Source: a virus
Lineage: Duplodnaviria > Caudoviricetes
DNA: 60,731 nt
IMG/VR virus record: IMGVR_UViG_3300030061_001772
Coordinates: 1 to 60,731 of that record
Direction: 5' to 3' (one strand)
Shown here in pieces: positions 1,617-60,731 of this stretch; position 1 is the first letter of the stretch, and the number at the start of each line of letters is the position of its first letter. The position numbers and the translations under genes are program-made. The notes beneath the pieces are model-generated. The model was not told the origin of the DNA. It worked only from the letters and a program-made list of their open reading frames with translations, and ran no database searches.

Positions 1617-1909
1617 AATATATAGTAGCAGCGTTATTGTTTACCAGTTGTAATGTAAGTTCTAAAGTATTAGAAAAATACAACAACGATGACTTTAATT
1701 ACGTAGGTAGAACAGTAACATATGAAGATGAAGTTGTAGCTAAATTAAAAGCTATTGAATTATCATACGACGGAGGTGAATTAATATATGAAGCCACGTT
1801 TGAATTAACAAACAGCAAATACAACCCTTATGCTATTAATGTTATTAAAATAGCTAGAATGCATCCTAAAATGAAAGACTGGGATATAGAGGTTGAACTT
1901 AAATACTAA
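1607..1909 (+). CDS. Putative lipoprotein
   Basis: ATG at 1607 gives MGIKYIVAALLFTSC, a lipobox-like signal; overlaps helicase stop. Confidence 0.6.
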   Translation: MGIKYIVAALLFTSCNVSSKVLEKYNNDDFNYVGRTVTYEDEVVAKLKAIELSYDGGELIYEATFELTNSKYNPYAINVIKIARMHPKMKDWDIEVELKY

Positions 1910-2166
1910 TGATACCTAAAAAGGTTGATTGGAAACCACCTTTATGGGACAAAGCAAACACTGAAGCATATCAATGGTGTATAAAACATGGTGTGAAAAT
2001 ATACTCCGTGCCTTGCGGTAAAGGTTTTGGCAACAAGACTTGTTGGATAGAGGTAAATGTAAACGGAAGAAAAAAATTAAGTCCAGGAACTTATGGTCCA
2101 ACAGAATTATGGCCTAAAGTTATGGAACTATATAAATTTTATTATGATAAAAACATTCGCAAATAG
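1909..2166 (+). CDS. Hypothetical protein
   Basis: 85-aa ORF coupled to the upstream stop (TAATG). Confidence 0.7.
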   Translation: MIPKKVDWKPPLWDKANTEAYQWCIKHGVKIYSVPCGKGFGNKTCWIEVNVNGRKKLSPGTYGPTELWPKVMELYKFYYDKNIRK

Positions 2167-2860: not shown

Positions 2861-3653
2861 TATAACATATTATTTATACCACATCCCGGGTAAAAAGATT
2901 GGTGTAACACGTAATCTTATAGATAGAGTTACAACACAACAGGGATATACCCTAGACGAAATAGAAGTTCTAGATCAAAGCACAGATATCGATTATATAT
3001 CAAGCCGCGAGTTAGAACTTCAAAAGTCTTACGGCTATCGAGTCGACCTTAAACCTTATAAACAATTATTTAAAATGAAAATTAACGCAACCGAGCAAAC
3101 CTCGACATTTCCTGTACCTTTAAACAAACTAAAAGGTAGACTTATGGACTCAATAGGAGACACATGGGAAACAATACATGGTACATTTACAGTAACTAAA
3201 GATTCTGTAGATTGGATAATGAAACATGCTAAGACATCTATGTTTAATAAAAATAGATCTTATATATATAATAAAGCGTTTTACGAGGCTTTTTTAAACG
3301 AAGCTAAGCAAGAAGCTACATTGTTTTATAATCAATTAAAAGATAGAGCTAATGGAGTTGAAAAAGACAGATTTCAATTAATAAGAGATTGGGCAGATGA
3401 AAGAGGGCTTTATGATAAAGGAGATACTAAAACACAATACTGTAAGCTTATGGAAGAGGCTGGAGAGCTTGGTAGAGCTATACTAAAAAAAGATAATGAA
3501 GAGTTTGTAGATGCTATTGGAGATATGGTTGTTGTATTAACCAACTTAGCTCATTTAGGCGGAGTATCAATTGAACATTGCATTGATTCAGCTTATAACG
3601 AAATAAAAGACCGTAAAGGCGGAATGCAGAATGGAACTTTTGTTAAAGACTAA
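2850..3653 (+). CDS. MazG-like NTP pyrophosphohydrolase with N-terminal GIY-YIG-like segment
   Basis: C-terminal KLMEEAGEL...DAIGDMVVVL...AYNEIKDRKG; N-terminal YYLYHIPGKKIGVTRNLIDR. Confidence 0.8.
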   Translation: MDGNITYYLYHIPGKKIGVTRNLIDRVTTQQGYTLDEIEVLDQSTDIDYISSRELELQKSYGYRVDLKPYKQLFKMKINATEQTSTFPVPLNKLKGRLMDSIGDTWETIHGTFTVTKDSVDWIMKHAKTSMFNKNRSYIYNKAFYEAFLNEAKQEATLFYNQLKDRANGVEKDRFQLIRDWADERGLYDKGDTKTQYCKLMEEAGELGRAILKKDNEEFVDAIGDMVVVLTNLAHLGGVSIEHCIDSAYNEIKDRKGGMQNGTFVKD

Positions 3654-3738
3654 TCCAACGTTTGGTATAGCGTTAGCTAATTTAGTAGCATTATTATTTA
3701 TTTTAATCTTATATTATTATGACAGAAAAAACAATTAA
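3631..3738 (+). CDS. Small membrane peptide (35 aa)
   Basis: MELLLKTNPTFGIALANLVALLFILILYYYDRKNN fills the gap between neighbouring genes. Confidence 0.4.
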   Translation: MELLLKTNPTFGIALANLVALLFILILYYYDRKNN

Positions 3739-4006
3739 ATTTAGAGATCCAGTGGTTGAACGCGTTGTAGATAAATTTGTAGACCGTTCAGATGTTGGTT
3801 TTAAAAAATACAAACAAACACTAGACACTGAGCGTAAGACTGGAGTTAAAGACTTAGCTGGATATCTTAACGATGTACAAGAAGAGCTAATGGATGCAAT
3901 ATTATATATTCAAGCAGCACGCGAAGAGCTGTCTGAAGCTAAAGACAAAGTCTACGGCGAAAGTATTAATGGTTTACCTTACTATGTCTCGGATATTGCG
4001 TCGTAA
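3719..4006 (+). CDS. Small all-alpha MazG-fold-like nucleotide pyrophosphatase
   Basis: RSDVGFKKY...QEELMDAILY acidic helix motif. Confidence 0.55.
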   Translation: MTEKTIKFRDPVVERVVDKFVDRSDVGFKKYKQTLDTERKTGVKDLAGYLNDVQEELMDAILYIQAAREELSEAKDKVYGESINGLPYYVSDIAS

Positions 4007-4436
4007 AAAACGCGGTCCGGTTAGAGCTAAGAAAAAAGTTGTAGATGGTATAGAATTTAAGTCAGGACTAGAAGCATATATGTATAAAGCTTTAAAAGAA
4101 GCAGGTATACAGGCAGAGTACGAAGGGGTAAAGTATGAACTTACCCCTTCATTTGACTTTAACAATAATAGTTATGAGCGACAAGGAAATGGAAAAGGCG
4201 AGTACAAAGATCGCGGAGGCAAGAAGATACTTAAGATCTCTTACACACCTGATTTTACAGGAACAGGGTTTATCATTGAGTGTAAAGGAAGGGCAAACGA
4301 ATCTTTTCCTATACGTTGGAAACTATTTAAGAAATATGTCAGCGAACGACTTCATAGCGTTACTTTATATAAACCACAAAATCAAAAAGAATGCGACGAA
4401 ACCGTGAGCTTAATACTTGGGAAAAGAAAGATCTAG
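3984..4436 (+). CDS. PD-(D/E)xK endonuclease (T7 endonuclease I / resolvase-like)
   Basis: FKSGLE, YTPDF and IIECKG motifs; likely start at 3984. Confidence 0.8.
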   Translation: MSRILRRKKRGPVRAKKKVVDGIEFKSGLEAYMYKALKEAGIQAEYEGVKYELTPSFDFNNNSYERQGNGKGEYKDRGGKKILKISYTPDFTGTGFIIECKGRANESFPIRWKLFKKYVSERLHSVTLYKPQNQKECDETVSLILGKRKI

Positions 4437-4555
4437 CTAGACGCAAGTATGCTGAAAGAAAACTACAACAGTTTATTAACTGGAGTATAGAAAGTAAAGG
4501 TTATTTAAAATATAAAGACTTAATAGAATATAGTAAAAAATATGAAACAAGATAG
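4391..4555 (+). CDS. Small hypothetical protein (54 aa)
   Basis: Open frame MRRNRELNTWEKKDLARRKY...KYETR bridges the endonuclease and tonB genes. Confidence 0.45.
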   Translation: MRRNRELNTWEKKDLARRKYAERKLQQFINWSIESKGYLKYKDLIEYSKKYETR

Positions 4556-5177
4556 AATAACACATACATTGATAGGATTAACTTTAACATTGGCTTTTTC
4601 TGTTTGCTTTTTAGAATATAAAACAATAGCAGCAGATAATCAATATATAAGTTCTTCTTTGGTTCAACTAGAGGATGAGGTTATTGTAGAAATAAACAAA
4701 CCAATTATACCTCCTCCACCACCACCTCCAGTTTCAATACCGGAATTAGTAGAAGTTGTAAAAGATGAAGAAATAATAGATAAACCTATTATTTTATTAG
4801 ATCCTGAAATAGATATTGATATAGTTATAAACGTAGAAGAACAAGAAGAACCTATTGTTGAAACTATTTTTGATGTTGTTGAAGAAGTACCAGAGTTTGT
4901 AGGTGGGGTTGAAAAGCTATACGAATATTTAGGTAATAACATAAATTATCCTGAACAAGCTAAAGACTTTAGTATTCAAGGTAAAGTTTTTGTACAATTT
5001 GTAGTATGGAAAGATGGTACTATTAAAGATGTTAATGTCGTTAAAGGAGCACATAAACTTTTAAATAAAGAAGCTTTAAGAGTTATAACTAATATGCCTA
5101 AATGGAAACCAGGAAAACAAAGAGGTAAAAATGTAAACGCAAGATTTACATTGCCCATAAAATTTAGAATAAGCTAA
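4542..5177 (+). CDS. tonB: TonB family energy transducer
   Basis: N-terminal TM helix, poly-Pro and acidic linker, TonB_C domain (PEFVGG...YPEQA...IQGKVFVQFVV..DG...WKPGKQRG...FTLPIKF). Confidence 0.9.
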   Translation: MKQDRITHTLIGLTLTLAFSVCFLEYKTIAADNQYISSSLVQLEDEVIVEINKPIIPPPPPPPVSIPELVEVVKDEEIIDKPIILLDPEIDIDIVINVEEQEEPIVETIFDVVEEVPEFVGGVEKLYEYLGNNINYPEQAKDFSIQGKVFVQFVVWKDGTIKDVNVVKGAHKLLNKEALRVITNMPKWKPGKQRGKNVNARFTLPIKFRIS

Positions 5178-5395
5178 TGAAAGAAAACACACTGCTTGAA
5201 ATGCAGAATAAAATAAAAGCATTAACAAATGTTGTACAACACTTAGTTAATGAAATAGAATACATGAGAACGTTGTCTTATGGTACGTTAGAAACAATAA
5301 AGCAAATGCCAGATTATGAGGAAGCTTTAGGTAAAGTAAAAACAAAAGTTAAAGAAGCAAAAGAAGATGGAGTTATCAAACAAGATACTAAGTGA
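5177..5395 (+). CDS. Hypothetical coiled-coil protein
   Basis: 72-aa ORF coupled to the tonB stop. Confidence 0.7.
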   Translation: MKENTLLEMQNKIKALTNVVQHLVNEIEYMRTLSYGTLETIKQMPDYEEALGKVKTKVKEAKEDGVIKQDTK

Positions 5396-7229
5396 TGTAA
5401 CAGTTTATATGAAATACGCAAAATATATCCCTGAATTAAGCCGTAGGGAGACATGGGACGAACTAGTAACACGTAACATGAATATGCATATTAAAAAATA
5501 TCCTGAGCTCACAGACGACATTAAAACAACATATAAATTGGTCTATGAAAAAAAGATTTTACCATCTATGCGATCGCTTCAGTTCGGTGGTAAGCCGATT
5601 GAAATATCACCTAATCGTGTGTATAATTGTGCTTACTTACCTATCGATCATATTGAATCGTTTAATGAGATTATGTTTTTATTACTTGGCGGAACCGGAG
5701 TTGGATACTCTGTTCAAGATCACCATGTTAAAAAGCTAGATCCGGTTAATAAACCTTATAGTAAAAGAACTAGAAGATTTTTAATAGGTGACTCAATTGA
5801 AGGTTGGGCTGACTCTATTAAAGTACTAATGAAATCATATCTTGGTGACAAAAGAAGTTCACGTATAGAGTTTGACTACTCTGATATACGCCCTAAGGGT
5901 GCAATGTTAGTAACGTCTGGTGGTAAAGCACCTGGACCTCAACCACTTAAAGAATGTATAGTAAAGATAACAGGAGTTTTAGATTCAAAGGAGGATGGCG
6001 ATACGCTCTCCACTATAGAAGTACACGATATAGTTTGCCATATTGCAGACGCCGTCTTAGCTGGTGGGATACGTCGAGCAGCTTTGATAAGTCTGTTCTC
6101 AGCGGACGACGAGGAGATGATCTCTTGCAAGTCTGGAAATTGGTGGGAAACAAATCCACAAAGAGGTAGGGCTAACAACTCTGCTGTTTTAATGAGGCAT
6201 AAAATTACTAAAGAGTTTTTTATGGATCTATGGAAACGTGTAGAACTATCAGGCGCAGGTGAACCTGGTATATACTTTAACAATGATAAAGACTGGGGTA
6301 CAAACCCTTGTTGTGAAATAGCTTTACGACCTAATCAGTTTTGTAACTTATGTGAAGTAAATGCTAGTGACATAGAGTCACAAGATGATTTTAATAACAG
6401 AGTGAAAGCAGCTGCGTTCATAGGAACATTACAAGCTGGATATACAGACTTTCACTACTTAAGAGATGTATGGAAAGAAACAACAGAGAAAGACGCTTTA
6501 ATAGGCGTCTCGATGACTGGGATAGGCTCGGGCACGGTGTTAGGATACGACATGAAGAAAGCCGCTCAAATAGTAAAAAGAGAAAACGCAAGAGTCGCGA
6601 AAGTGATTGGAATTAATCCATCAGCTAGATGCACAACCGTGAAGCCTGCAGGGACAACATCTCTGGCATTAGGAACATCATCTGGTATTCATGCGTGGCA
6701 TAATGATTACTATGTCCGTAGAGTTAGGGTTGGTAAAAACGAAAGTATATACAAATACTTAGTTGAAAATCATCCCGCTTTAATTGAAGATGAGTATTTT
6801 AGACCGCATGATACAGCTGTAATTAGTATACCACAAAAATCACCTGAAGGTTCTATACTTAGAACTGAATCACCTTTTCAATTACTTGAACGTATAAAGA
6901 AAGTAGCTACTGAATGGGTTGCACCTGGACATAGAAAAGGTAGTAACACCCATAATGTATCTGCTACGGTTAGTTTAAAAGCTGAAGAGTGGGAAGACGC
7001 AGGAGAGTGGATGTGGGACAACAGAAATCATTATAATGGTTTATCTGTTTTACCTTACGATGGTGGAACTTATACGCAAGCGCCATTTGAAGATATAACC
7101 GAAGGTGAATATCTTAATATGTTACAACACTTAACTGATATAAATTTAGAAAATGTTATCGAGACTGAAGACAACACTGATCTCTCTGGCGAGCTTGCTT
7201 GCGCTGGTGGTTCTTGCGAGATTACATAG
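5367..7229 (+). CDS. nrdJ: Class II (adenosylcobalamin-dependent) ribonucleotide reductase
   Basis: NCAY, TNPCCEI, TVKPAGT and C-terminal CAGGSC redox pair; no beta subunit nearby. Confidence 0.88.
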   Translation: MELSNKILSDVTVYMKYAKYIPELSRRETWDELVTRNMNMHIKKYPELTDDIKTTYKLVYEKKILPSMRSLQFGGKPIEISPNRVYNCAYLPIDHIESFNEIMFLLLGGTGVGYSVQDHHVKKLDPVNKPYSKRTRRFLIGDSIEGWADSIKVLMKSYLGDKRSSRIEFDYSDIRPKGAMLVTSGGKAPGPQPLKECIVKITGVLDSKEDGDTLSTIEVHDIVCHIADAVLAGGIRRAALISLFSADDEEMISCKSGNWWETNPQRGRANNSAVLMRHKITKEFFMDLWKRVELSGAGEPGIYFNNDKDWGTNPCCEIALRPNQFCNLCEVNASDIESQDDFNNRVKAAAFIGTLQAGYTDFHYLRDVWKETTEKDALIGVSMTGIGSGTVLGYDMKKAAQIVKRENARVAKVIGINPSARCTTVKPAGTTSLALGTSSGIHAWHNDYYVRRVRVGKNESIYKYLVENHPALIEDEYFRPHDTAVISIPQKSPEGSILRTESPFQLLERIKKVATEWVAPGHRKGSNTHNVSATVSLKAEEWEDAGEWMWDNRNHYNGLSVLPYDGGTYTQAPFEDITEGEYLNMLQHLTDINLENVIETEDNTDLSGELACAGGSCEIT

Positions 7230-7740
7230 TTGCAAAAAAATAACAGATAATTATAAAACATTTACTATAAGAGAGGGTAAACATAGGTCGACAAATGCCT
7301 TGAACTATAGTAAGGACACGGTGTTCGGTTGGAACATTGAATTTGATTCAAGTGCTATCTACAAATGTGTGGATAGCCTTAATCAATATGATATAAACAA
7401 ATTAATAGGGTGGAGTGATTGTGGTACAGATCATATAGAAAACTCTATACGCTTTGGATGGAGATGGCTAGATGATAGCTTAGAAATACATTGGTTTAAA
7501 CATGAACATGGTAAATTTAGTTTTGATCTCATTAAGAGAGTTAGTCTATGTGAAGAACATTATTATGAGTTAACTATATTTAGATGGGATTATAAGCTAG
7601 CTGTCGATGGCACATATGTTTATGTGCCTCGCAATTGTCCAAACGAATATAGAAGATATCAACTATATCCTTATTTTGGAGGAGAAGAAACTGCACCTAA
7701 TGACATAAATATTAAAATAAAAAAGGGGACCTCGTATTGA
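7153..7740 (+). CDS. Putative exported or lipoprotein beta-rich protein
   Basis: Hydrophobic N-terminus ending LHSCKK; beta-rich body ending PYFGGEETAP; start uncertain. Confidence 0.65.
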   Translation: MLSRLKTTLISLASLLALVVLARLHSCKKITDNYKTFTIREGKHRSTNALNYSKDTVFGWNIEFDSSAIYKCVDSLNQYDINKLIGWSDCGTDHIENSIRFGWRWLDDSLEIHWFKHEHGKFSFDLIKRVSLCEEHYYELTIFRWDYKLAVDGTYVYVPRNCPNEYRRYQLYPYFGGEETAPNDINIKIKKGTSY

Positions 7741-7752
7741 GATCCCCTTTTT
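7719..7752. terminator. Bidirectional intrinsic terminator
   Basis: AAAAAAGGGGACCTC-GTATT-GAGATCCCCTTTTT at the convergence of the + and - gene blocks. Confidence 0.85.
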
Positions 7753-7796
7753 GGTTACAGGAACTTTGGGTATGGTGCCCAGTTTTTTTAGTGTTC

Positions 7797-8027
7797 CTAA
7801 TACAGTGTGTCTGAATAAGCTACATAAGAGCCTAACAGCTGATTTTCTTCTTCTAATCTTAAGCTTTCATTATATAATAAATAATAATCAGTTTCTAAAT
7901 CTAGTAACTTAAACTTTAATTTTGCTTTTTCTATTCTATTTACTTTAATTTCATTAATCAAAACTTGATTATAAATTAATAAAGTTAACGATATTATACA
8001 TATAATATATATTGCTATTCTTTTCAT
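7797..8027 (-). CDS. Membrane-anchored coiled-coil protein
   Basis: N-terminal TM helix followed by a heptad pattern. Confidence 0.65.
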   Translation of the reverse strand: MKRIAIYIICIISLTLLIYNQVLINEIKVNRIEKAKLKFKLLDLETDYYLLYNESLRLEEENQLLGSYVAYSDTLY

Positions 8028-8231: not shown

Positions 8232-8480
8232 TTAGCATTTCCATCTTTTTCTAGCTGCTTTTCCCCTTTCACCAGTCCATCCTTTCGATCTTGCACAAAA
8301 AGCTTTTCTACGTTTAGCTGCTTTACTACCAGGTTTTACTTTGCCAGTTACAGCTGTTTTAAGTTTGCTACCAGGATTTTTCTTTCTGTAAGCTTTAACA
8401 CCTTTAGATGTCATGCCAGCGCCTTCTTCTGTTGTTCTGAAGTTTCGTCCTTTACCTTTAGTAGTCTTACGTATAGCCAT
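8232..8480 (-). CDS. Small basic phage protein
   Basis: GMTSKGVKAYR..NPGSKL...RRKAFCARS...RWKC pattern. Confidence 0.8.
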   Translation of the reverse strand: MAIRKTTKGKGRNFRTTEEGAGMTSKGVKAYRKKNPGSKLKTAVTGKVKPGSKAAKRRKAFCARSKGWTGERGKAARKRWKC

Positions 8481-9209: not shown

Positions 9210-12200
9210 TTTTTATTTTTATATAGTTCTTCTATTTTTTTAACTCTATCGGCTTCATATTTTAAAGTTGATATCAATGAGTCAGAAAGACCTAACAACT
9301 TTAAAGTATCTACTTGACTTTGTTTGTTTAATTTATATAATCTTGTTTGTTGTTCTGTTCTTTTGCTTGATGGAATAGCTTCTGATTTTTTAAGTCTAGC
9401 AGGTATACTATCATTTTCTATTAATCTTAATAGTTTATCCACTCTTTTTTGTTCTGTATTATATTGTTCTCTAATTACTTTTTTACTAAAACCTAAGCTA
9501 TCTAATTTCTCTACTTGTTCCGCTTTATTATAATTAAAGTATTTTTTTACATTAGCATTAGTTTTTTTATCTGCTTCACTTATATCAGTTCTTTCCTCTT
9601 CCTTAACATAAGGTGAATAAACTTTTTTCTTATCTGTTTTAGCAGGTTTTTTAATTTTACTAGTATATATCTTACCAGACTTTTCTTCTGCAGCTTTTAT
9701 TGTAGCTGCTCGAGTTCCTGAGTCTTTCATTTTCTTTATATCCTCTTCACTATAACCATGCTGCATAAGTATATCTACTTGTTCTGCTTTAGAATATTTA
9801 GTAGGATCTTCTTGTGCTTGTCTATACTTGTAATCTTCTTTTTCTTGTTGCCAATCTTCTGTTTTCTGCGCTTCATTTTTAAGTTGCCATTCTGGCCACC
9901 CTAATAACGTAGCTACCTTTTGCCATGTTTCACTTTCATCACTCATAGCGTATTGCACGTTTTCTATTTTTTGCAAAAATCTATCTAGTGGAACATTTGT
10001 AGTAGCTGACACTACTTTAGCAAAAGCTGTAAAAGCAGGGTTATCTAAACTAAAACCTTTATCAATCATTTCTTGACGTCTTTGTTTAGTATCAAACTGC
10101 CACGCAGCGTTTTTAAGTTTACTAACTTTATTTTTTATTGCAGGAGAAAATCCTAACAGTTGCCAAGCAGCATCTTGAAAATCTGGTTGTTTTCTTCCTA
10201 TTCTTTTATAAGCGTCGATGGCTGTATTTTTTAGAACAGATATAGTCATTCCAGCAAATCCAGTACCTCTTAATACACTGTCAAGCATTCCATTACCTGT
10301 GTTTAAAAACTTATCTTCTATTTCTGCATCTCCTAGATCATCATCAAAACCAATAGCAAAAGCTGCTTGCTGCATAAAGTTAAACCATAAGTTTTGCATA
10401 GCGCCATAGTAAAGTATTTTACCTATTTTAGGTAATGGATTTCCTCCACGTTTATTAATTATATCTTTTATTTCAGTAAGTTGTAATCTATTGTATTGCA
10501 TAGGAGTATTAACGAACTGTAATAGTATTCTACCCATGTCACCTGACTGCTGTTGAGATATTTTACTAGGATCACTTGATTGTTGAGATTTTTCAGAAAG
10601 CTCCATGAATTCTCCAAAAGCTTTAGTCTTAGCTTCTGCCTCAGACAAACCTTCTTTCTTCATAATATCATTAATCCTATTTCTATACCACATAGAACCA
10701 CCAGAAGCAATAGCAAAACTATCCGCAAATTTTGTAGGTAAATATCCTTTTTCTAATATATAGTTTACAGCAGCTTTAGCTTTATTACCACTAGTAGCAG
10801 CGGCGTCAGCTATTTCACTTTCAGATATGTTAAGTTTTAAACCATTACGCCTATCAACTAAATAATCAGAGTTCATTATATCTACAAAATCTTTCCAATA
10901 TTGCTTTTGGTTAGCAAAAGCTTTACCCATTTTTAACGGGTTGTTAAAAGACGTGTTAGTATAATTAGCAGATGAAAGCGTTTGAAGTATAGCAGATCTC
11001 ATGTTTAAGAACATTATAGTTCCTTGAGCATTGTTTATATAATCTAAAGCTCTATCACTTAATCTATTTCCACTTTGTATTCTGTTTTTACCAGCTTTCA
11101 TTCTGGCTAAACTATTACTTAAAGCTTCTCTATACTTAGGTCCATAAGCGGCTTCAAGCTTGTTCATGTTCTTTTCAGAAAACATAACATCAACATTAGC
11201 TTGCCATTCAGTAAGATATTTGCCTCTTTTTGAAGTGTTTAACAAGTCTATAAAATCTGTTGTTATAGTACCGGATAACCAATGTTCTTTAGGTTTAGCA
11301 TAACCATCTCCTTTAGTAATGGAAAGTATTTGATTAGCAAATGTAGAAAGCTTAGGATCATTTTCTACTATTTTATTTAGTTCAGCTAAATCTGTTTTAG
11401 ATAATCCTGGAACTTCATAGCCCATTTTGCTATACAAGTTAACTCTAACAGCTTGTTCTTTAGTAAAACCAGACTTTGTATTTTCTCTTAAATCTTTTGG
11501 TACATCTAACTCTTGCTTTAACTTTTTAAAATCTTGCATTAAATTAACTCTATCTTGAGATAAAGCTCGTTGAGCTCTGTTATAAGGTTTATATAATGTT
11601 TCATTGTAAAACTCTCTTTGAGCATCACCTTCTTTTCCTTTTCCTAAAGTATAATCCATTAAGCCAGAAAAATCTTGAGCTGACGGACCCATTAATTTAT
11701 AACTACTTACTTCAGCGCCTCTTACTTTTGCTTTAGCTTTTGAAAACTCTTTTTCAGCACCAATACCAGTTTTATTTTCTATTATCTGGTTAAACTTTTT
11801 GTCTAACTCTACAGAGCTTTTATTTATTCTAGCTTGCTGTACTTGAGATTTGACATCAATAGGTTCTAAAGCTTTTTTAACAGCTTCTACATTAGCCATA
11901 GCATCATCGGCAAAGTAAAAGTCATTATAACCTTCAGCGGCTTTACCAACTATCCATTCTGCTTTAGCTTCGCCTGTAGAGTTTCCAAGACCTTTTATAT
12001 TTTCTAAAGGAATATCAATACCCATTTGTTTTAAAAACTCATGAATAGCAGGTGCCGATTCAGCTGCTCTTGCAGTCAAGATAAACATATCTCTATCTCC
12101 CTCTGCTTCTTTCATTTTCTTCATTAAGTCAAATAATGGACCTTTCTTACCGTCAACAACTTTATTAAAATCAGAAAAATCCATTTTCCACCCAGCGTCA

Positions 12201-15200
12201 ACTAAATCTTTACCATCTTTTGCAAACTCTTCAGCTGTTAATGTTTTCTTTTCACCACCTTTAGTAGCAAACACCTTACTCTTAGTTCTAGCAACTGTAT
12301 CATCAAAGTCAAATACTCTAGCTTTTTTAACTGGTGGATTAATTCTTCTTGCTTCTTCTAAAGCTTTATCAGCAGTCTTTGTTATATCTATAAGCTCACC
12401 TTTAGATTTACCTTTAGTAGAGGATTTATTTAGATAAGATATTTTTTCAACTACTTTTCTATCATAATTTGTAACCTCTTCACCACGCTCCATTTTGGCT
12501 GCTATCTCATGAGCTTTACCTTCTTTTGAAGCTTCAAAATCTTTTGTTTCGATGTATTTTGCTAAGTTTAATACAGCTCTTGATCTTCCATCTCCTAGCG
12601 TACGTCTGTTAAACATTCTAGCATATCTCGCATCCTCTTTAAATATAAGACCTTCTCTTGGGCTTTCTACTTTAAACTGTTCAGCTAAAACATTATCAAA
12701 GCTTTCATTAACTAAAGCTGTTTCGTACTCATCAAATATTTCTTTAACTTTTTCAAAAGACTTTTCTTTAAACTCTAAACCATTCCAGTTATTTTTGTTT
12801 TGCATTTCAGCTACAATCCTACGTAACATTGGATCAGCTGCTTTCTTATGCTCTACGGTTAATTCTGTCAACACATCTCCTTCAAAAGGTATCATTACAT
12901 CTGCTAAGTTAGCTGCTTCTCTTAGATGTGTTCTCATGTTAGTATTATAGCTATTTAGCTTTAAAAACAACATTTCTCTATCCATTTTGCCTTCTTTAAA
13001 TTGAATAAAGTCATCTACTATTTCATCAATTAAAGCGTCTCTAGATTGATCTGCTTCTATCTTTCTAGTTTCTACATCTAACTTTAGTTTTTCAAATTTT
13101 TCAGGATTGTTTTCAGCCCATTTAGCGTCTGCTTCCATTTCTTTGATATAGTCAAAAATGTAAGACATGCTCTTACCGGTCTGTTGAGACTTACTCATGT
13201 TAACTTTCTCGCCATCTAACTCTATACTGTTTCTTTTTAGATTACCATTTTCTTCTAACTTGTACGTTAAGTCAACATTTTTTTCCTTAAGTATAGGTTT
13301 TAGCCTTTCTAATAAAGTAGGCATTGCTCCAAAGAATTGACCTCTATAACCAGCTTCTCCTCCAGCTGTTATTAAGTGACCAGTATTATATTTTAGATAT
13401 CTTTCTACTTCTGCTTTCAAAGCATCACCTTCTAAGTTATCGATTTTTCTTTCAAAATAATCTATAGTTCTCAATTGTCCCTCTTCAGCCCTAAGTAATG
13501 CTAATTCTTTAGCGCTTTTAATACTTATTCCTAACTGAGCCTGAAGCTTTGCGGCTTCTTTAGATATAGCTTGAACCTCTGTTAATGCTTCACCAACTTC
13601 AAAATCAGCAATCTCTTTATCAATTTCAGATTTTAACTTTTTAGATTCTACACCATCTAGTATTATATTTGATTTATCATACTTAAACCCTTTACCTACT
13701 CTGTCTAATGTTTTTATCATTTCATTAGCCATCTTACCAGCGACTTCATTAGATATACCAAACCCACCTTCAAATGTATTTTCCTTAGCAAAGTCTTTAT
13801 ACATTTTAGCAATAGCTTTCTTCGACTCTTTATTAATACCTAATCTTACTTCTTTACTTAATCTTGGACTAAGTTTTTCAATAATACGATCATATATAGA
13901 GTTACTAATATCAAGAACATTAACTCCTTCAGGCATTAATCCTTCGTTAACTACTGTTGTTATAGCTTCTCTAAGTGCTGAGTTTTTTCTAAAATTAGAT
14001 ATTTCTATTTGCTGGTTTACTTTTTGTTTAAAATCTTTGACATCCCCTTCTTTAAACGCTCCATCAAAACCTTCTATAGCATTTCCTTCAGCCATAAACT
14101 TTTTAATATCACTCATGTAAAGATCTCTTCTTACATCAAATTCTTTTTTAGTTATTATACCTGAATCAAACTCATTTCTAGACGTTTCAAATTCAGCTTC
14201 AGCTAGATCTATTTTATTATCTATCTCCGTCTTACTATCTAATATTTCCATAAACCTTTTGCTCCCATAGCTATCTGCTATTTGATAAGCTAAACCGTCT
14301 CTTTTCGCTTGCCACCTGTCGGGTACAGCATCTTTTAAGAACTGTGCTTTATCAGCTTCGGTTATGTTACTCTTAAGCTTAACTCCTTTAGGACCTGATG
14401 TAAATCTATTATCTCTTCCAGTTGAACTCGCTTGAGCACTTTTTTCAACTAAGTAAGGAAAATTTCTAGATAAATAACCTACGGGCAACGTTTCTATTAT
14501 ACCGTCAAAAGCGTTATCAATGTATCTTTTGTAATCAGCTTTTTTCTTACCCATAGTCTCAGCTACAGCTTTTTGACCTTTTTTACCAAAGTCTTTTTTA
14601 AATTCTCTAATGAAAGGAGATATAGTTTGGTTTTTGCCAGCTGGAGTATTGAAAGCTTCTACTAGTTTATTAAAATCTAAATCTTTAAAAGTTTTATCTA
14701 AATCAGTTACAGTTTCTGGCTTTAATTTAGACTTAAGTAATACTTGTTTTGAAGTTAAAGGTTTATAAGTAGATTCAACAGTTTTTTCTCCAAAGTTTTC
14801 AAAAGAAGAATCTGATGGATCAAACCCAGCTTCTTCTTTAAGAGCATCTAATGATACATCTTTTTTCTCAAGTATCTTTTTTATGTTTAATCCTTTATGG
14901 TATATATAAGAATTAACCCAAGCAAAAAACCCTTTAGCACCACTCGTAGTTTGCTTTGACTTTTCAAAACCTTTTATATGGTTAGTCATTTCACCATATA
15001 CACTTTGAACAAACTCCCTATCTAACTCTTTAGTCCAACCTTTTTTGTACCTGTCGTAAGGTAATTGAGCTGCTATTAAGTTATCTAGTAAACCTTCTTT
15101 AACCATGATGTTCTGAGCTTTTTGAGCACCACCATTTAACCATTCTTTTTGATTTTCTTTATAAAGCTTGTTTATCTTAGGACCATTGTCTACTGAAGCT

Positions 15201-31362: not shown

Positions 31363-31366
31363 AATT

Positions 31367-55671: not shown

Positions 55672-56160
55672 TTACTTTATACCTGTTGTTTTCCACGTAC
55701 CTTCTTTCTTACCTGGCTTTAATTTATAGTCATAATCTTCTACAATATTGTCTTTGCTTCTTTTTAGGTGTCTACCATATATTAAATCTCCTTTTCTAGG
55801 TCCACTTTCCATATCATACATGCTTTTACCGTCTTGACCTATGTCTTGGCCTGGTATAGAATAAGAATGTCCTAGTTCTTTAGCAGCTTGAATCCCTGCA
55901 GACGCAGTTAACTTGCCAGCTTTTCTAGCAATTAAGTCTCCTACCATGTTGCTAGCAGTTTTACCTACTGCATTAGCAAATTTAGATCTTGGACCAGGAC
56001 TATTATCTGACACAACATCCATGTTTCTTCTTGCTAGTCCTCTACTTTTGTTAACAGATGTAGTTACTACACCGGATTTTTTGTTAGTGGTAATTTCTAA
56101 CTCAGGAAGCATTGTGCTTGGTTTTGGATCTTTACCTTTTCTTTTAAATGGATTTCCCAT
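55672..56160 (-). CDS. Hypothetical protein, first gene of the leftward block
   Basis: 162-aa ORF. Confidence 0.7.
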   Translation of the reverse strand: MGNPFKRKGKDPKPSTMLPELEITTNKKSGVVTTSVNKSRGLARRNMDVVSDNSPGPRSKFANAVGKTASNMVGDLIARKAGKLTASAGIQAAKELGHSYSIPGQDIGQDGKSMYDMESGPRKGDLIYGRHLKRSKDNIVEDYDYKLKPGKKEGTWKTTGIK

Positions 56161-56255
56161 AATTATAATATTTTTATTTGTACAATTGTTTTTATAGCTA
56201 TAATCAGTATATTACACAATATCACTATATTTTACATAACTAAATAAAACAAAAG

Positions 56256-56302
56256 TGTGACACTAGCTAGTTACTATTTATACTTAACAACCTAATGTCA
56301 CA
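56256..56302. repeat. 47-bp element with inverted arms, copy 1
   Basis: TGTGACACTAG...CTAATGTCACA; aligns without gaps to 56984-57030. Confidence 0.85.
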
Positions 56303-56482
56303 GTTATAAGATATATAGAAGTAAAGTGTTGCTCTACAAAATTTAATTTTAAAGTTTCAAACAAAATCAAAAAAATATTTTATGGGTCCCCCTTGTTTTA
56401 AAAAAATGTTTTAACGATTTTTACGTTTTCAAAATAATATTTCACCCCATGTTTTATGTTTTTTTCTAGACTACTATAATAC

Positions 56483-56514
56483 TACAATCTAAATACGTAG
56501 CCCTTAAGATAATA
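56483..56514 (+). promoter_or_regulatory. Putative early promoter, copy 1
   Basis: TACAATC-TAAATACG-N10-GATAATA. Confidence 0.75.
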
Positions 56515-56546
56515 TATATATAATAACTTAAATAAATAAATTAAAT

Positions 56547-56660
56547 ATGAAAATTCTAAATCTAATCTCTCTACTCTTTATCACTACAATCGTATCATTA
56601 ATAACTTATAACATAATAACATATGGTGTAATTCAATACATATCATTCAATGGCATTTAA
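56547..56660 (+). CDS. Small hydrophobic early peptide (37 aa)
   Basis: MKILNLISLLFITTIVSLITYNIITYGVIQYISFNGI between promoter copies 1 and 2. Confidence 0.5.
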   Translation: MKILNLISLLFITTIVSLITYNIITYGVIQYISFNGI

Positions 56661-56663
56661 TAT

Positions 56664-56695
56664 TACAATGTAAATACGTACCAATTAAGATAATA
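56664..56695 (+). promoter_or_regulatory. Putative early promoter, copy 2
   Basis: TACAATG-TAAATACG-N10-GATAATA. Confidence 0.75.
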
Positions 56696-56740
56696 TAATA
56701 AACAAATTAATAACTAATATAAATAAATAAATAAATAACT

Positions 56741-56977
56741 ATGAAAAATAACAATTTAACTACAAAAAGATTCGTAATAAGAAAGTCACTAATCGGCGAG
56801 AATGCAATAATAACTTTCACTAATAATAAAGATATAACTTTCACTTATGACCATGATGAGATTTACTCAACATTTCAAGAAAAGTTTGAAAGTATGAAGT
56901 GTTTCCAAGAATACAAGTCATATACTAATAGTAATACTGTACCAGCATTTGCTAGAAACTTAGCAGAAATAGTATAA
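56741..56977 (+). CDS. Early hypothetical protein
   Basis: 78-aa ORF with A-rich leader. Confidence 0.75.
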   Translation: MKNNNLTTKRFVIRKSLIGENAIITFTNNKDITFTYDHDEIYSTFQEKFESMKCFQEYKSYTNSNTVPAFARNLAEIV

Positions 56978-56983
56978 GTAAAC

Positions 56984-57030
56984 TATGACAATAGCCAGTT
57001 ACTCTTATATATTAACATACTAATGTCACA
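56984..57030. repeat. 47-bp element with inverted arms, copy 2
   Basis: TATGACAATAG...CTAATGTCACA. Confidence 0.85.
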
Positions 57031-57123
57031 CTATTATAATACTTACTTAATGTAAGTTACTCAGAGAGTAAGTGTTATACTTCTAACTAAATAATAACTA
57101 ATAAATAAATATACACCTTCAAT

Positions 57124-57231
57124 ATGAAAAAATTTAATACTAAAAAAGATAATGAAACAGCTAATGAAGCAATGTTAGCAATGATAATAATAACATGTGT
57201 AATAATAATAGTAAACTATGTTACAATGTAA
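57124..57231 (+). CDS. Small early peptide (35 aa)
   Basis: MKKFNTKKDNETANEAMLAMIIITCVIIIVNYVTM; the stop lies within promoter copy 3. Confidence 0.45.
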   Translation: MKKFNTKKDNETANEAMLAMIIITCVIIIVNYVTM

Positions 57232-57253
57232 ATACGAGAAGTAAAAGATAATA
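57222..57253 (+). promoter_or_regulatory. Putative early promoter, copy 3
   Basis: TACAATG-TAAATACG-N10-GATAATA. Confidence 0.75.
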
Positions 57254-57351
57254 TAATAAACAACAACAACAAAAGTCTTAGTTGATGGTAATACTTTAGA
57301 GACTATAAATATAATGAATATATTACTCAGCACAAACTAATAAATAATAAT

Positions 57352-57516
57352 ATGAAAACTATAACTATAAAAATAGATGAAGATAATGACATTTATGAAA
57401 TGAGTGTTGATAATAAAGTATATACTATTGATAATGTATATGAAAGTAAATACTCTTACTTATTTGATGAACTAAATATGGCAATAGAAGCTAAACTAAA
57501 TAACTACTATAAATAA
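57352..57516 (+). CDS. Early hypothetical protein (54 aa)
   Basis: MKTITIKIDEDNDIYEMSVDNK... open frame with A-rich leader. Confidence 0.6.
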   Translation: MKTITIKIDEDNDIYEMSVDNKVYTIDNVYESKYSYLFDELNMAIEAKLNNYYK

Positions 57517-57543
57517 ATTAATAACTAATAAAAATAAATAACT

Positions 57544-57741
57544 ATGTATAATCCTAATAATCCTTCAAACTGGTCTTGGTCAAAAGCATTTGACAATATG
57601 GAAAAGACTATAAATAAAGCTGAACTAGAACAGCAAATAATAAATCATCAACATAACTATGATGGTGGTATAAAGAAATTTACTGAACTAAGTAAAGATA
57701 AACAAAATGATCACTATGAAATATTAACTCAAATACTATAA
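57544..57741 (+). CDS. Early hypothetical protein
   Basis: 65-aa ORF. Confidence 0.7.
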   Translation: MYNPNNPSNWSWSKAFDNMEKTINKAELEQQIINHQHNYDGGIKKFTELSKDKQNDHYEILTQIL

Positions 57742-57744
57742 ACT

Positions 57745-57906
57745 ATGAATGACACTTATGAATTCGAAATATACTATGGTGAAATAGAAGAACCATTATA
57801 TTTAACTAACGACAAAGAATATATATGTGAGTCAATGTATAACTTCATGCAAGACGAACTAGGAATAATTATGAACGAAGTAATATATAAAGTAGAAAAA
57901 ATATGA
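57745..57906 (+). CDS. Early acidic hypothetical protein (53 aa)
   Basis: MNDTYEFEIYYGEIEE...; ATGA overlap with the next gene. Confidence 0.6.
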   Translation: MNDTYEFEIYYGEIEEPLYLTNDKEYICESMYNFMQDELGIIMNEVIYKVEKI

Positions 57907-58139
57907 AAAAACTAATAATAGGTATCGGAGCATTGGGAGTAATGTCTTTCACAACAAATCAATTATACTTTGGAACTCAATTAGTTCACGCTATGGATAA
58001 CATACAAGACATGAAAACTTGGATTGGTGAAGACGTAAATAGTGGTAGAATGACTGAGGAAATAGCTGAATACTACTACGAAAATCTTGACGAAACTTAT
58101 GGTTTTATAAGTGACTTTCATGAAAAGCAATGTAAATAA
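57903..58139 (+). CDS. Early exported protein
   Basis: Signal peptide MKKLIIGIGALGVMSFT. Confidence 0.7.
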   Translation: MKKLIIGIGALGVMSFTTNQLYFGTQLVHAMDNIQDMKTWIGEDVNSGRMTEEIAEYYYENLDETYGFISDFHEKQCK

Positions 58140-58171
58140 TACAAACTAAATACGATCACTAATAGATAATA
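58140..58171 (+). promoter_or_regulatory. Putative early promoter, copy 4
   Basis: TACAAAC-TAAATACG-N10-GATAATA. Confidence 0.75.
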
Positions 58172-58178
58172 ATAATAA

Positions 58179-58442
58179 ATGATAAATACAAAATACATAT
58201 CAACTAAATATCTCGACGCCATCATTCTCGATGACGACTATATCAAACTAGTCATCAACAAGGTACAGAAATCTCCGTACGGTTGGACTAAACGAGATTT
58301 ATTATCTTCACCATTCGGTGTAAAAACAAAAGCATTCACTTACGACTTTGTAAGTAATAAGGTAGACGAGGTGTATTCTACCTTTCCAAACGAAGAAATA
58401 CACGAGTTAATAACCAAAGTAAAACAATATAAAAATGGTTAA
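58179..58442 (+). CDS. Early hypothetical protein
   Basis: 87-aa ORF directly after promoter copy 4. Confidence 0.7.
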   Translation: MINTKYISTKYLDAIILDDDYIKLVINKVQKSPYGWTKRDLLSSPFGVKTKAFTYDFVSNKVDEVYSTFPNEEIHELITKVKQYKNG

Positions 58443-59253
58443 ACAAGCAATAATTAAATTCTGTTATAAAGCCGTTGAGCAAAAGATGCTAAAAATATAT
58501 GCTATCACAATGTCTATAATCTTTTTTTCACTATGGATACCTGCAATGGTAAATGTAGTATATCAAATGCTTAAACTATACGGAATAATATGAATAAACT
58601 AACAAAACAACTAGAAAACCTGTACTCTTGGACACAATTCTATCAGCAAACTGGTAATAAAGTACAAATAAGAAAGTGTCAAACTGAAATCGCTCAGTTG
58701 AAAAAAGCGTATAACGAACTAAAGAGTAAAAAGAAATGAAGTGTCCATGGGAAGTAGCTTACCAACTACACAAAGATAGGTACACTAAAGAAGAAATAGA
58801 TGACATGCTATTTATGGAAATACAAGAATTAATATACGATTATGACTGAAATACAAAAAATAGAGGCGATAACAAAAGATATCTTAGCCGGATACTACGG
58901 TACTACACAGAAATGTGGTACAGAAACTCAAAAATGGCAATACGCTCACAACCAAGCAAGGAAAATCTTTGAAGGTGAACTAATAATTGACTCTAATTAT
59001 ACTGCCAATGTTTGATATAACTGAACAAGATTGTGAAACTATCACTAAATTAAGATGGTTACAAGTAAAAGAATTAGCAATAAAATACTCCAATGACCAA
59101 GAATTTGGTGCAGAAGTAAGAAAATTAATTAATAAATGAATTATGGAATTTAAAAACTTAGTAGCAAACGATGAGTTTGGTATGGATTATGACCAACTAG
59201 GTCACAACGAACAAGAATGGGTGATTGACTATATTGATATTTGTTTATCATGA
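58435..59253 (+). other. Cluster of six tightly packed tiny early ORFs (58435-58593, 58590-58739, 58736-58849, 58842-59015, 59008-59139, 59143-59253)
   Basis: Each read by hand as an open frame of 36-57 aa, with overlapping or abutting start and stop codons. Confidence 0.6.
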
Positions 59254-59495
59254 GAAAACTATTATTAATACCATTATTACTTAGTAGCTGTAATACATTA
59301 GAAACAGTTTACGTCCCTAATAATTTAAATAAAATAAAAAAGAATTTAGATTTAATGGAAAAGTATGTTGAATACGACTTAAAAAATGGATTAATGGATT
59401 CTACTTCTGCTTTTGATTACTTACTTATAATAAATAATACTAGACAAGGAGTTATAAAAATGAATTACAAACTAAATACGAACACTAAAAGATAA
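59250..59495 (+). CDS. Early lipoprotein
   Basis: MRKLLLIPLLLSSC lipobox. Confidence 0.7.
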   Translation: MRKLLLIPLLLSSCNTLETVYVPNNLNKIKKNLDLMEKYVEYDLKNGLMDSTSAFDYLLIINNTRQGVIKMNYKLNTNTKR

Positions 59496-59497
59496 TA
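59466..59497 (+). promoter_or_regulatory. Putative early promoter, copy 5
   Basis: TACAAAC-TAAATACG-N10-GATAATA. Confidence 0.75.
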
Positions 59498-59502
59498 TAT
59501 AT

Positions 59503-59646
59503 ATGAAAACAATTAAATTTTATCCTAGCAACAGATCACTGATTAAGCTAGACGGCAAGAAAGTAAAAGGCTATACTATAGATAGCATACCAGATGAGTG
59601 TAACTCATGGTTTAATTACAAAGGTTTAACTTTTGTAGTAAATTAA
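59503..59646 (+). CDS. Early hypothetical protein (47 aa), possibly leaderless
   Basis: MKTIKFYPSNRSLIKLDGKKVKGY...FVVN. Confidence 0.65.
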   Translation: MKTIKFYPSNRSLIKLDGKKVKGYTIDSIPDECNSWFNYKGLTFVVN

Positions 59647-59650
59647 AACA

Positions 59651-59862
59651 AATTAAGAAGTGACCGGCTTAAATGCAAACCACTAATAGAGTCTGGACGG
59701 CGAAACTACTCTTACACTTCTTTAATTAAACCACGACTCCAACCACCGCTTCGTAGGCGCGTAACGGAGAACAACAGTGGGGCTAAGTGACGGCTTAGCT
59801 TGGACAGCGAGGTCAGGTGTTGACTGTTCTAGACATGAGAGGTTCGAATCCTCTCTCTCGCT
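59651..59862 (+). ncRNA. Candidate structured ncRNA(s) ending in a tRNA-like acceptor/T-arm element
   Basis: Locally GC-richer intergenic stretch with several stems, GAGAGG-TTCGAAT-CCTCTC T-arm and AGCGAGG/TCTCGCT acceptor-like stem. Confidence 0.55.
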
Positions 59863-59864
59863 CT

Positions 59865-59990
59865 ATGAAAACAATTAAAGTAACAATGAAGGAAATATAC
59901 GATGCTATGAAGCCTTCAGTAGAAAAGAATAAAAAGAAATATACACGTAAAAAAAAGCATAAAAATGGCAAAGGAGAGAACAATGAATGA
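59865..59990 (+). CDS. Small basic ArfA-like peptide (41 aa)
   Basis: ...KPSVEKNKKKYTRKKKHK resembles the ArfA core RVEKNKKGKGSYxRKxKH. Confidence 0.5.
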   Translation: MKTIKVTMKEIYDAMKPSVEKNKKKYTRKKKHKNGKGENNE

Positions 59991-60333
59991 AATAAGACAA
60001 ACTAAAGAGTACTACACAGGTAATACTCATGAAGAATGGGCTAATAAAGCAAATAATTCAGAAGAAATGGGAAAAAATAGAGAAAATATGAAAGAATGTC
60101 CACTTGATCCTGTAGAAGAAGCTAAAATACTAATAGTAAATAAAATAACTAAACACTTTCATGATATAATGTTTGAAATGGTTAACGAAGAAATGGGTAA
60201 AAACTATGTGTTTCAAAGCCAAAACTACTTAACTGAAGCAGGTTATGAGCAGTTTGAAGATGAATGGTTTGAATTCTATCACAATCATCACGGTGATATT
60301 ATTTATGAAGTAATGAATAATATTACAAACTAA
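59965..60333 (+). CDS. Early hypothetical protein
   Basis: 122-aa acidic ORF; the stop is the TAA of promoter copy 6. Confidence 0.7.
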   Translation: MAKERTMNEIRQTKEYYTGNTHEEWANKANNSEEMGKNRENMKECPLDPVEEAKILIVNKITKHFHDIMFEMVNEEMGKNYVFQSQNYLTEAGYEQFEDEWFEFYHNHHGDIIYEVMNNITN

Positions 60334-60355
60334 ATACGACAACTATTGGATAATA
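60324..60355 (+). promoter_or_regulatory. Putative early promoter, copy 6
   Basis: TACAAAC-TAAATACG-N10-GATAATA. Confidence 0.75.
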
Positions 60356-60360
60356 TATAT

Positions 60361-60731
60361 ATGAAATGCACGCACAATATACCAAAACAAAGATTAGCAC
60401 TCGGCTACACGACTTGCGTCGAGTGCTCGACCGAAGAAAAACTCGGTTGTATCGATACTATAAACCACAAAACTGGCAATACTATTCAAGTAATGTCACG
60501 TAGTGATGCAGATCAAGCATCAAAACTAACAAAACGTGCCGGTTTCGGCACACTCAGAGCCATCACTAAAGGCTCAAGTCAACGTAAAACTAAATATCAG
60601 TACGATGGATGCTCAACCTCTTATGTAGGTAATGACAATTTGTTCGAGCACATAGGTAAAACTTACATCGACTACTTAGATGTTGACAAAGATATTGCAG
60701 AGCGTTATTTAACTCGCTCGCTTAACAACTT
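60361..60731 (+). CDS. DksA/TraR-like zinc-finger protein, 3' truncated by window edge
   Basis: MKCTHNIPKQRLALGYTTCVECS; frame is open to the window end. Confidence 0.6.
   Translation, partial: MKCTHNIPKQRLALGYTTCVECSTEEKLGCIDTINHKTGNTIQVMSRSDADQASKLTKRAGFGTLRAITKGSSQRKTKYQYDGCSTSYVGNDNLFEHIGKTYIDYLDVDKDIAERYLTRSLNN

Follow-up and report, generated by a model that had tools for sequence, protein, structure and literature searches.

The viral record IMGVR_UViG_3300030061_001772, a linear sequence of 60731 bases with an estimated completeness of 94%, was analysed over its full length (the window). Near its right end it carries six copies of a bipartite motif, TAAATACG-N10-GATAATA, positioned at gene junctions at the start of a rightward arm on the + strand. 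The arm opens with a block of small open reading frames (ORFs) that diverges from a long − strand block of structural genes, among which PHROGs and Pfam name the portal, the large terminase, GroEL, and virion proteins. The record breaks off inside this arm. In complete relatives, the arm runs on via a sigma-factor gene to primase/helicase, ThyX, MazG, and resolvase; in the window, the + strand at 1–8000 carries a primase/helicase, a thymidylate synthase, a MazG-like pyrophosphatase, a resolvase, a ribonucleotide reductase, and a TonB_C protein (PHROGs, Pfam). The six sites are very likely promoters, and we consider it rather probable that they are read by host core RNA polymerase carrying a sigma70-family factor encoded by the phage clade.

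Six motif copies at the head of the rightward arm

The pattern has six exact matches in the window, all on the + strand (Table 1), and a match occurs in 0/100 dinucleotide-preserving shuffles. With up to one mismatch, the whole record gives six forward and no reverse matches, and the reversed-pattern control gives none; with up to two mismatches, the same six copies are found and nothing further. Allowing three mismatches adds five matches, each with three mismatches. The resulting total of 11 compares with 6.02 expected and is reached by 6/100 shuffles, and the five extra matches are at chance level. The six copies are those of the original prediction, whose coordinates mark the TACAA that starts 7 nt upstream of TAAATACG.

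The location at gene junctions, likewise claimed at the outset, holds for all six copies. Copy 1 is the first signal of the rightward arm and lies ahead of the very first gene of the arm. At copies 3 and 6, the TAA of TAAATACG serves as the stop codon of the upstream gene; at copy 5, the TAA within GATAATA does. The distances from GATAATA to the next ATG over the six copies are 5, 5, 7, 32, 45, and 98 nt. GATAAT is invariant in 6/6 copies.

Table 1 Motif copies and related features of the window (window positions; start, predicted transcription start)
Feature	Position	Strand	TAAATACG at	Start	Remarks
Motif copy 1	56482..56520	+	56490	A 56520	GATAATA 56508; next ATG 56547
Motif copy 2	56663..56701	+	56671	56701	ahead of the conserved 78-aa ORF 56741-56977
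Motif copy 3	57221..57259	+	57229		TAA is the stop of ORF 57124-57231; next ATG (ORF of at least 30 aa) 57352
Motif copy 4	58139..58177	+	58147	58177	ATG of ORF 58179-58442 2 nt on
Motif copy 5	59465..59503	+	59473	59503	start is the A of the ATG of ORF 59503-59646
Motif copy 6	60323..60361	+	60331	60361	TAA is the stop of ORF 59965-60333; start is the A of the ATG of an ORF running off the record end
Small-ORF block, putatively driven by the six copies	56547..60729	+			start of the rightward arm
Giant ORF, 3588 aa	9206-19972	−			conserved part 9803-12454

The genome is that of a marine, globally abundant podophage of Flavobacteriia. By large terminase and portal, it is akin to the uncultured podovirus MW202828.1 (identity 64% and 49%, respectively). 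Elemovirus, a genus of Flavobacterium phages, shares 46% and 41% identity, Cellulophaga phage phi38:1 and its kin share 34% in the portal, and Tenacibaculum and Maribacter phages are more distant kin by the same proteins. Relatives of the large terminase occur on at least 600 IMG/VR stretches, and the small-ORF block itself is found in sequencing runs of marine origin, with 78–93% of its sequence words present in the DNA runs X1-X6. The block has no DNA similarity to any of 50,697 phage records, its small ORFs match no Pfam family at E 0.001 or better, and Rfam and ARAGORN make no call in the motif region.

Anatomy of the motif across the phage family

The exact pattern is present in at least 120 IMG/VR stretches, mostly with several copies per contig on one strand. 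The matches listed by this search provide 226 unique copies, counts out of 241 copies include the window, and the family figures in this section refer to these listed matches, with positions counted from the T of TAAATACG. The family consensus is TTACAAAnTAAATACGA-N8-R-GATAATA-TAAAT-R. Among the 226 unique copies, conservation extends to letters outside the search pattern: TTACAAA at −8 to −2 is conserved at 61–94% (C 94%, A 93%), the first spacer base, after CG, is A in 92%, and GATAATA is preceded by a purine-rich position and followed by TAAAT-R. Spacer positions 9–16 carry 0.18–0.44 bits. The base before GATAATA, at −13 from the predicted start, is genome-specific, with an identity of 0.76 within a locus versus 0.45 between loci (29 loci, 118 copies). 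The exactly 10-nt variable spacer that had been described is therefore upheld in its length, which is 10 nt in 6/6 copies of the window, but not in its free variability, given the A at its first base and the genome-specific last base.

All copies are on one strand in 120/121 loci. An ATG-started ORF of at least 30 aa is found within 60 nt downstream of 205/241 copies, versus 94/241 random positions in the same loci. The commonest ATG is at position 30, that is, 5 nt after GATAATA (51/241 copies), and few are closer. The upstream gene ends in the TAA of TAAATACG in 54 and in the TAA of GATAATA in 37 of the 241 copies. In 25/178 family copies (L010-L129, positions 28-33), ATGTAA, a start codon followed by a stop, stands right after the motif, ahead of the real ORF.

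We also studied 40 long records, of which 36 were picked for the motif and four by terminase. With up to one mismatch, 39/40 contain copies, nearly always on a single strand, and the reversed pattern gives three matches in total; GATAAT is kept in nearly all of the one-mismatch copies listed for these records. In the complete relatives, motif copies cluster most densely where the arm begins, but G025 and G012 also have some a few hundred nt ahead of the primase gene, so that 'early', the word of the original prediction, is a first approximation only.

Position 30 is located 7 nt after the last T of GATAAT. In the 178 copies without an ATG at this position, it is a purine in 95% (A 50%, G 45%, versus a local G background of 7%), and position 29 carries a pyrimidine in 77%. 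Sigma70-family holoenzyme promoters typically pair a −10 hexamer (−12 to −7) with a pyrimidine/purine step at −1/+1. By this likeness, GATAAT would be the −10 box (−12 to −7), and the conserved purine 7 nt further on, in many copies the A of an ATG, would be the transcription start. The predicted start position is an A in 6/6 copies of the window. It coincides with the A of the ATG at copies 5 and 6 and is followed by an ATG 2 nt on at copy 4, and the mRNAs from these three copies would therefore be leaderless or nearly so.

With the predicted start as +1, the 17-nt block TTACAAAnTAAATACGA spans −38 to −22 and may confer the upstream specificity. Of the conserved blocks, TAAATACGA ends 9 bp and TTACAA 20 bp upstream of GATAAT. 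In the original prediction, GATAAT was assigned to sigma region 2 and TAAATACG to region 4. The first assignment agrees with the −10 place of GATAAT. The second is doubtful, since the conserved upstream block is too near GATAAT for a canonical −35 element (10 bp for TAAATACG, versus ~17 bp). In addition, no hairpin is found in any of the six copies (single-stranded DNA minimum free energy 0 to −0.6 kcal/mol, z 0.5–0.9 versus shuffles), which excludes an N4-type promoter and an intrinsic terminator.

The motif is unlike the housekeeping promoter of the host phylum. In the portion of PMC9723704 available, the flavobacterial sigmaA promoter is given as TAnnTTTG at −7 with an upstream TTG, and six promoter classes are mapped in F. 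psychrophilum, comprising sigmaA variants, sigma54, TAnnTTGY, and an extracytoplasmic function (ECF) class with CGT; none of these mapped classes resembles the motif. TAnnTTTG with TTG ~17–20 bp upstream is present in 0/6 copies, and neither TAnnTTTG nor the strict combined pattern occurs on the + strand at 56300-60731, in line with the initial statement that the motif differs from the Bacteroidota housekeeping promoter (TTG/TAnnTTTG). In the crAss-like Cellulophaga phage phi14:2, the host-type signal TTGAC-N17-TAnnTTTGTA is located upstream of g070, g075, g108, and g110, before middle genes that depend on the host RNA polymerase. The late strands of elemoA and MW202828.1 carry a repeated TATCTTTG(C/T)A, which is unlike all six copies. 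The late strand of the window yields nothing convincing with the strict host-type pattern. A CAAGTGAT(A/T)nTA sequence at 31365, 41953, and 51848 (−), upstream of three ORFs, could be a late signal; as such a signal, the CAAGTGAT box was rejected as not significant versus shuffles.

Reading the sites as promoters is well supported by their conservation, their proximity to ATG codons, their co-orientation with the genes, and the confinement of the copies to one strand. Four RNA-library runs contain small shares of the block as contigs, which carry no information on transcript starts, ends, or strand, and sequences of relatives cover parts of it. The RNA-library contigs match only ~58140-58177, 59464-59505, and 60322-60357, with several joints exactly at motif starts.

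A sigma70-family gene encoded by the clade

Searched in six frames for Sigma70_r4, each of four complete genomes with the motif yields one matching ORF of 251–255 aa, positioned between the motif block and the primase gene and co-oriented with both. Pfam assigns Sigma70_r2 to all four proteins (E 7e-6 to 9e-4) and Sigma70_r4 to three of them. Both domains exceed the curated cut-off in the G012 protein only; the others score 19.5–23.1 bits, just below it. The four proteins are 61–69% identical to one another and contain DLIQEG, KRIKGAIRR, and RIPEH blocks and a helix-turn-helix region 4. As judged from these domains and blocks, the ~250-aa ORF is a sigma70-family protein with regions 2 and 4.

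The sigma gene is present in 27/40 records, and in 17/17 of the records rated 100% complete with at least two motif hits. The 13 records lacking it are G019, G030, G032, and G036, which have one motif hit each and also lack the giant-protein module of the clade (see below), and nine incomplete records. In G024 (55767-56520, −), which is rated complete, the sigma gene is interrupted by stops (one TAG and two TAA, with four TGA in the other piece); it may be a broken gene, a sequencing error, or recoding.

The window, MW202828.1, elemoA, and phi38:1 contain no counterpart of these proteins (best E 0.15 by tblastn; E 0.99 for the next hit of hmmsearch --max). The last ORF of the window matches a gene located 5.2 kb before the sigma gene in G001, and several incomplete linear records stop, as the window does, no more than ~1 kb from a motif copy. 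Most simply, assembly would fail in the repeat-rich variable block, and the missing 6% of this genome would hold the sigma gene. The assemblies of the clade tend to break, or to wrap with variants, inside the motif block (ends of G003, G009, G015, G017, G021, G022, and the window). In G012, 20 motif copies represent ~10 sites counted twice, as the contig ends (1-6794 and 63762-70691) overlap by ~6.9 kb at ~95% identity; G001, G008, and G025 have end overlaps of 77–127 bp. These overlapping contig ends, from which the duplicate copies of G012 stem, give no basis for a long terminal repeat carrying the block.

The proposed mechanism is as follows. The six sites would be promoters of the rightward arm, serving early and replication genes, and would belong to one class conserved in the clade. 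Host core RNA polymerase with the ~250-aa sigma70-family factor of the phage clade would read them. We infer that this factor reads the motif, that transcription starts at the predicted site, and that the sigma gene lies in the missing part of this genome. The phage-supplied specificity factor of the original prediction is consistent with a clade that encodes a sigma70-family protein, but the factor is found neither in the giant protein, where it had been placed, nor in this record.

Several observations weigh against this mechanism. The sigma gene is not in the window, and its presence in this genome is deduced from synteny and the 94% completeness. The gene lies downstream of the motif block that the factor would serve, a motif copy is found within 1.5 kb upstream of it in only 6/23 loci, and a strict host-type signal (TTG-N17-20-TAnnTTTG) is found within the same 1.5 kb in 0/23 sigma loci (antisense control, two loci). 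The first firing may come from sigma factor, at least an initial dose, that enters together with the DNA, from weak host promoters that escaped recognition, or from another initial reader of the motif. At the motif, no canonical −35 element is found 17 bp from GATAAT, where the sequence reads CAAAnT, and the transcription starts are predicted from the sequence signature alone. Exact 32-nt copies in Flavobacteriaceae chromosomes are unexpected for a purely phage-private signal. Shared ancestry confounds the joint presence of sigma gene and motif, which is matched by the distribution of the primase, ThyX, the MazG-like gene, and the C-terminal module of the giant protein. Covariation offers no more. 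In a tree of 24 sigma proteins (G005, G028, and the broken gene of G024 left out; G037 and G040 have no −13 base count), the four genomes with T at −13 (G008, G014, G025, G034) adjoin, which makes them a single event, and the four columns fixed in these genomes fall outside the sigma region 2.4/3.0 block.

The relatives that lack the motif carry other repeated junction signals. In MW202828.1, a perfect palindrome, GTGTCGTTAACGACAC, is repeated 11 times on the strand of the rightward arm, with 2/11 copies inside annotated genes (L007, 43744-49879), and in phi38:1, AAACACTATCAAA is repeated 13 times on the strand of the early and middle genes (L131, − strand, 11.9-34 kb). Neither phage has the sigma gene or the C-terminal module of the giant protein. 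Arm, signal, and factor appear to go together, as would be expected of a private promoter/factor pair, although descent confounds this.

Alternative readers and known systems

The cognate sigma module had originally been placed inside the giant protein of the window, and this did not hold. Six-frame Pfam searches of the window return no Sigma70_r2, r4_2, or r4 match even at E 10, and hhalign against seven sigma factors from two host genomes gives probabilities of 0.6% for the whole giant protein and 0.1% for its conserved module. The protein matches no Pfam or PHROG family, with only a sub-threshold match to SHOCT. As a polymerase or sigma factor, it has no match in Pfam, PHROGs, PDB sequence profiles, six-frame LPD38/LPD39 searches, or hhalign, and the ESM Atlas provides just a lead to LPD39/LPD38 clusters.

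The C-terminal ~880-aa module of the giant protein is conserved in 35/40 records, and each of the other two thirds in 1/40, the N-terminal two thirds being hypervariable. The model of the module (predicted local distance difference test, pLDDT, 70) contains a HAD phosphatase domain, closest to the 3'-phosphatase of T4 Pnkp (polynucleotide kinase; Z 12.4, root-mean-square deviation 2.4, 128 residues aligned), followed by 670 all-helical residues, without a beta-barrel or a polymerase palm. Folded alone (pLDDT 74, predicted template modelling score 0.70), the helical part has no fold match (best Z 5.5; Foldseek none at E 0.001 or better), and its similarity to the phage ejectosome protein 8vb2_A (Z 4.3) is within noise. 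At least 4192 metagenome giants contain the same module, none of them named. The giant protein has the look of a polyvalent injected protein in which the anchor stays constant and the cargo varies. One listed giant homologue has the precomputed Pfam labels PF06414, which we take to be Zeta toxin, PF07931, and PF13671, and an HEIIH motif is seen by eye in the giant protein of the window.

These data bear on the possibility that an enzyme or factor delivered by the virion reads the motif at time zero, as in N4 and phi14:2, leaving the sigma gene for a later class; the reader would then be the conserved C-terminal module of the giant protein or a different packaged protein. The counterparts of the giant protein in relatives are annotated as virion structural proteins, its C-terminal module accompanies the motif and is not found in the giants of three motif-less relatives, and copy 1 stands ahead of even the first gene of the arm. 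We nevertheless regard such a reader as unlikely, because the module combines a HAD phosphatase with a helical part of no matching fold, because the −10/start geometry is of sigma70 type and no hairpin is present, and because the window and five complete genomes yield no T7-like polymerase family, in a search that had no positive control. N4 virion RNA polymerase promoters are hairpins, unlike the motif. The similarity to N4 and phi14:2 lies in the type of phage, podophages with a giant virion protein, of which phi14:2 also infects Flavobacteriia, and in promoter usage, with early genes lacking the host promoter type and middle and late genes having it (TTGAC-N17-TAnnTTTGTA in phi14:2). In the latter, early genes are transcribed by a packaged polymerase according to the part of 10.1101/2020.03.07.982082 at hand; in the conserved module of the giant protein here, no polymerase fold is found.

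A second possibility is that an alternative sigma factor or activator of Flavobacteriaceae reads the motif and that the phage copies a host promoter. A 22-letter extended pattern, for which the chance expectation is by our own estimate far below one, is found on 34 stretches, of which ~11 are large chromosomal contigs of Flavobacterium/Flavobacteriaceae metagenome-assembled genomes (L234, L242, L244, L246, L250, L251, L252, L261, L266; L284-L286). Each such genome has one or two of these chromosomal copies, and the genes behind them encode small secreted proteins that form one loose family, a membrane protein, and a TerB-domain protein. The small secreted proteins have a G-x-W pattern in common, and G042 has two copies 18 kb apart with an identical spacer. 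Against a host signal, five of 300 sampled Flavobacteriaceae genomes have a match with up to two mismatches, versus six reversed-pattern matches; this is chance level, indicating that the motif is not a general host regulon. Moreover, the promoter classes of F. psychrophilum in the consulted part of PMC9723704 are unlike the motif, and the two host genomes examined have only a primary sigma and ECF-like sigmas, while the clade has a sigma of its own. A host reader thus appears improbable, and the chromosomal copies are either phage-derived cassettes or host genes answering a phage factor. We give a small chance to a further proposal, in which the virion carries the private sigma, or an initial dose, and the promoters are active from time zero independently of any host sigma, the chromosomal copies being a tripwire or phage-derived cassettes domesticated along with their promoter. 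The RNA-guided dCas12f-sigmaE system of Bacteroidota, which in the excerpted text of PMC13472631 targets sites before susCD and two-component operons with a 5'-G motif, was considered owing to the long conserved block and rejected; nothing ties it to this phage.

The motif might also be no promoter at all, instead acting at the RNA level or in recombination at cistron borders, as a processing site, a translation leader, or a cassette-shuffling junction. It is a conserved island amid unrelated flanks, RNA-library contigs have joints at motif starts, and in 91/241 listed copies it overlaps the upstream stop codon, often abutting an ATG as well. Other phages are known to shuffle cassettes at conserved promoters, and such shuffling would agree with the promoter reading too. 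A fixed translation signal is hard to reconcile with ATG distances that range from 5 to ~100 nt; the motif forms no secondary structure; and a conserved −10-like hexamer with a pyrimidine/purine step 7 nt downstream is what a promoter predicts. We hold a non-promoter role to be a minor prospect.

A T7-class promoter for a single-subunit polymerase with its start at the G of GATAATA is very improbable: the AAATACG-to-G distance of 17 nt and an ACTA in several spacers (ATCACTAATA, AACACTAAAA, and ACAACTATTG at copies 4, 5, and 6; A-n-n-ACT-A in many family copies) are reminiscent of the T7 promoter consensus, and two RNA-library contigs begin within 2 nt of that G (60348, 59493), contig ends not marking transcript starts, but T7-class promoters are conserved throughout, whereas spacer positions 9–16 are nearly without information among the 226 listed copies, conservation reaches −26 relative to the G, and PF00940 is not found in the window or in five complete genomes, a search that gave no match in any control genome either.

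A few other features of the window were noted. No gene of the block is more widely conserved than the 78-aa ORF behind copy 2 (56741-56977, +), of which a locus often contains two; it matches no Pfam family, and its homology is to ~65 residues at the C-terminus of a 348-aa host protein (L251, 1750-2796). At 59647-59870 (+), ~200 nt of GC-rich sequence lies within the AT-rich early block, with a tRNA-like T-arm, GGTTCGAATCC, at its end; ARAGORN and Rfam make no call there, and the predicted fold is no better than that of shuffles (z −0.49). An 82-aa very basic protein (8232-8480, −) is 91% identical to its G001 counterpart; it is the best conserved small protein of the clade and is absent from MW202828.1.

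Phage sigma cascades are already known as a kind of system. T4 gp55 at late promoters, SPO1 gp28 and gp33/34, and phiEco32 gp36 are phage sigma factors with private promoters. The system proposed here would resemble them in that a sigma70-family phage gene redirects the host core polymerase to a phage-only promoter class, with an invariant −10-like element and promoters repeated at gene junctions on one strand. It would differ in the host phylum, Bacteroidota, whose sigmaA uses TTG/TAnnTTTG; in the 17-nt upstream block, which ends only 9 bp from the −10 box; in promoters that head the first genes of the arm rather than a middle or late class; and in a sigma gene downstream of its promoters, many predicted starts coinciding with an ATG. 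T4 middle promoters, which combine a MotA box at −30 with the sigma70 −10 box in 'sigma appropriation', likewise have a −10 box and a specific box near −30 instead of a −35 hexamer (here −38 to −22). The specificity factor here would be the sigma factor itself; no MotA or AsiA was seen, no search being aimed at them. With Bacteroidota sigmaA promoters (TTG at −33, TAnnTTTG at −7), the motif shares its place before genes and, broadly, T/A at −12/−11 and T at −7; it differs from them in the absence of TAnnTTTG and in an unrelated upstream block.

What would be new here is the host phylum, the three-block promoter with a short gap, the use at the head of the arm, the predicted leaderless starts, and the chromosomal copies. 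In the literature searched, supplements excepted, we came across no account of these elements, of the motif, or of a promoter or transcription scheme for the clade or its cultured kin; 'promoter' occurs 0 times in PMC5335546 (the phi38:1 transcriptome) and PMC8776804 (flavophages), again supplements excepted. Within that literature, a strategy in which a phage family uses a sigma factor of its own for its first genes has not yet been described for Flavobacteria phages.

Flavobacteriia are main degraders of algal bloom carbon, and this phage clade is very common in marine metagenomes. If the proposed mechanism is true, the first and replication genes of the clade would run from a private sigma/promoter pair orthogonal to Bacteroidota sigmaA, which would explain how these phages take over their hosts. 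The pair would also lend itself as a ready-made orthogonal switch for gene expression in Flavobacteria, for which few genetic tools exist. The genes behind the chromosomal copies would, if the tripwire proposal is true, be silent until such a phage injects, wired to the sigma factor of the invader. Under the proposed mechanism, the motif itself would serve as a simple metagenome marker for early regions and for possible host 'tripwire' genes.

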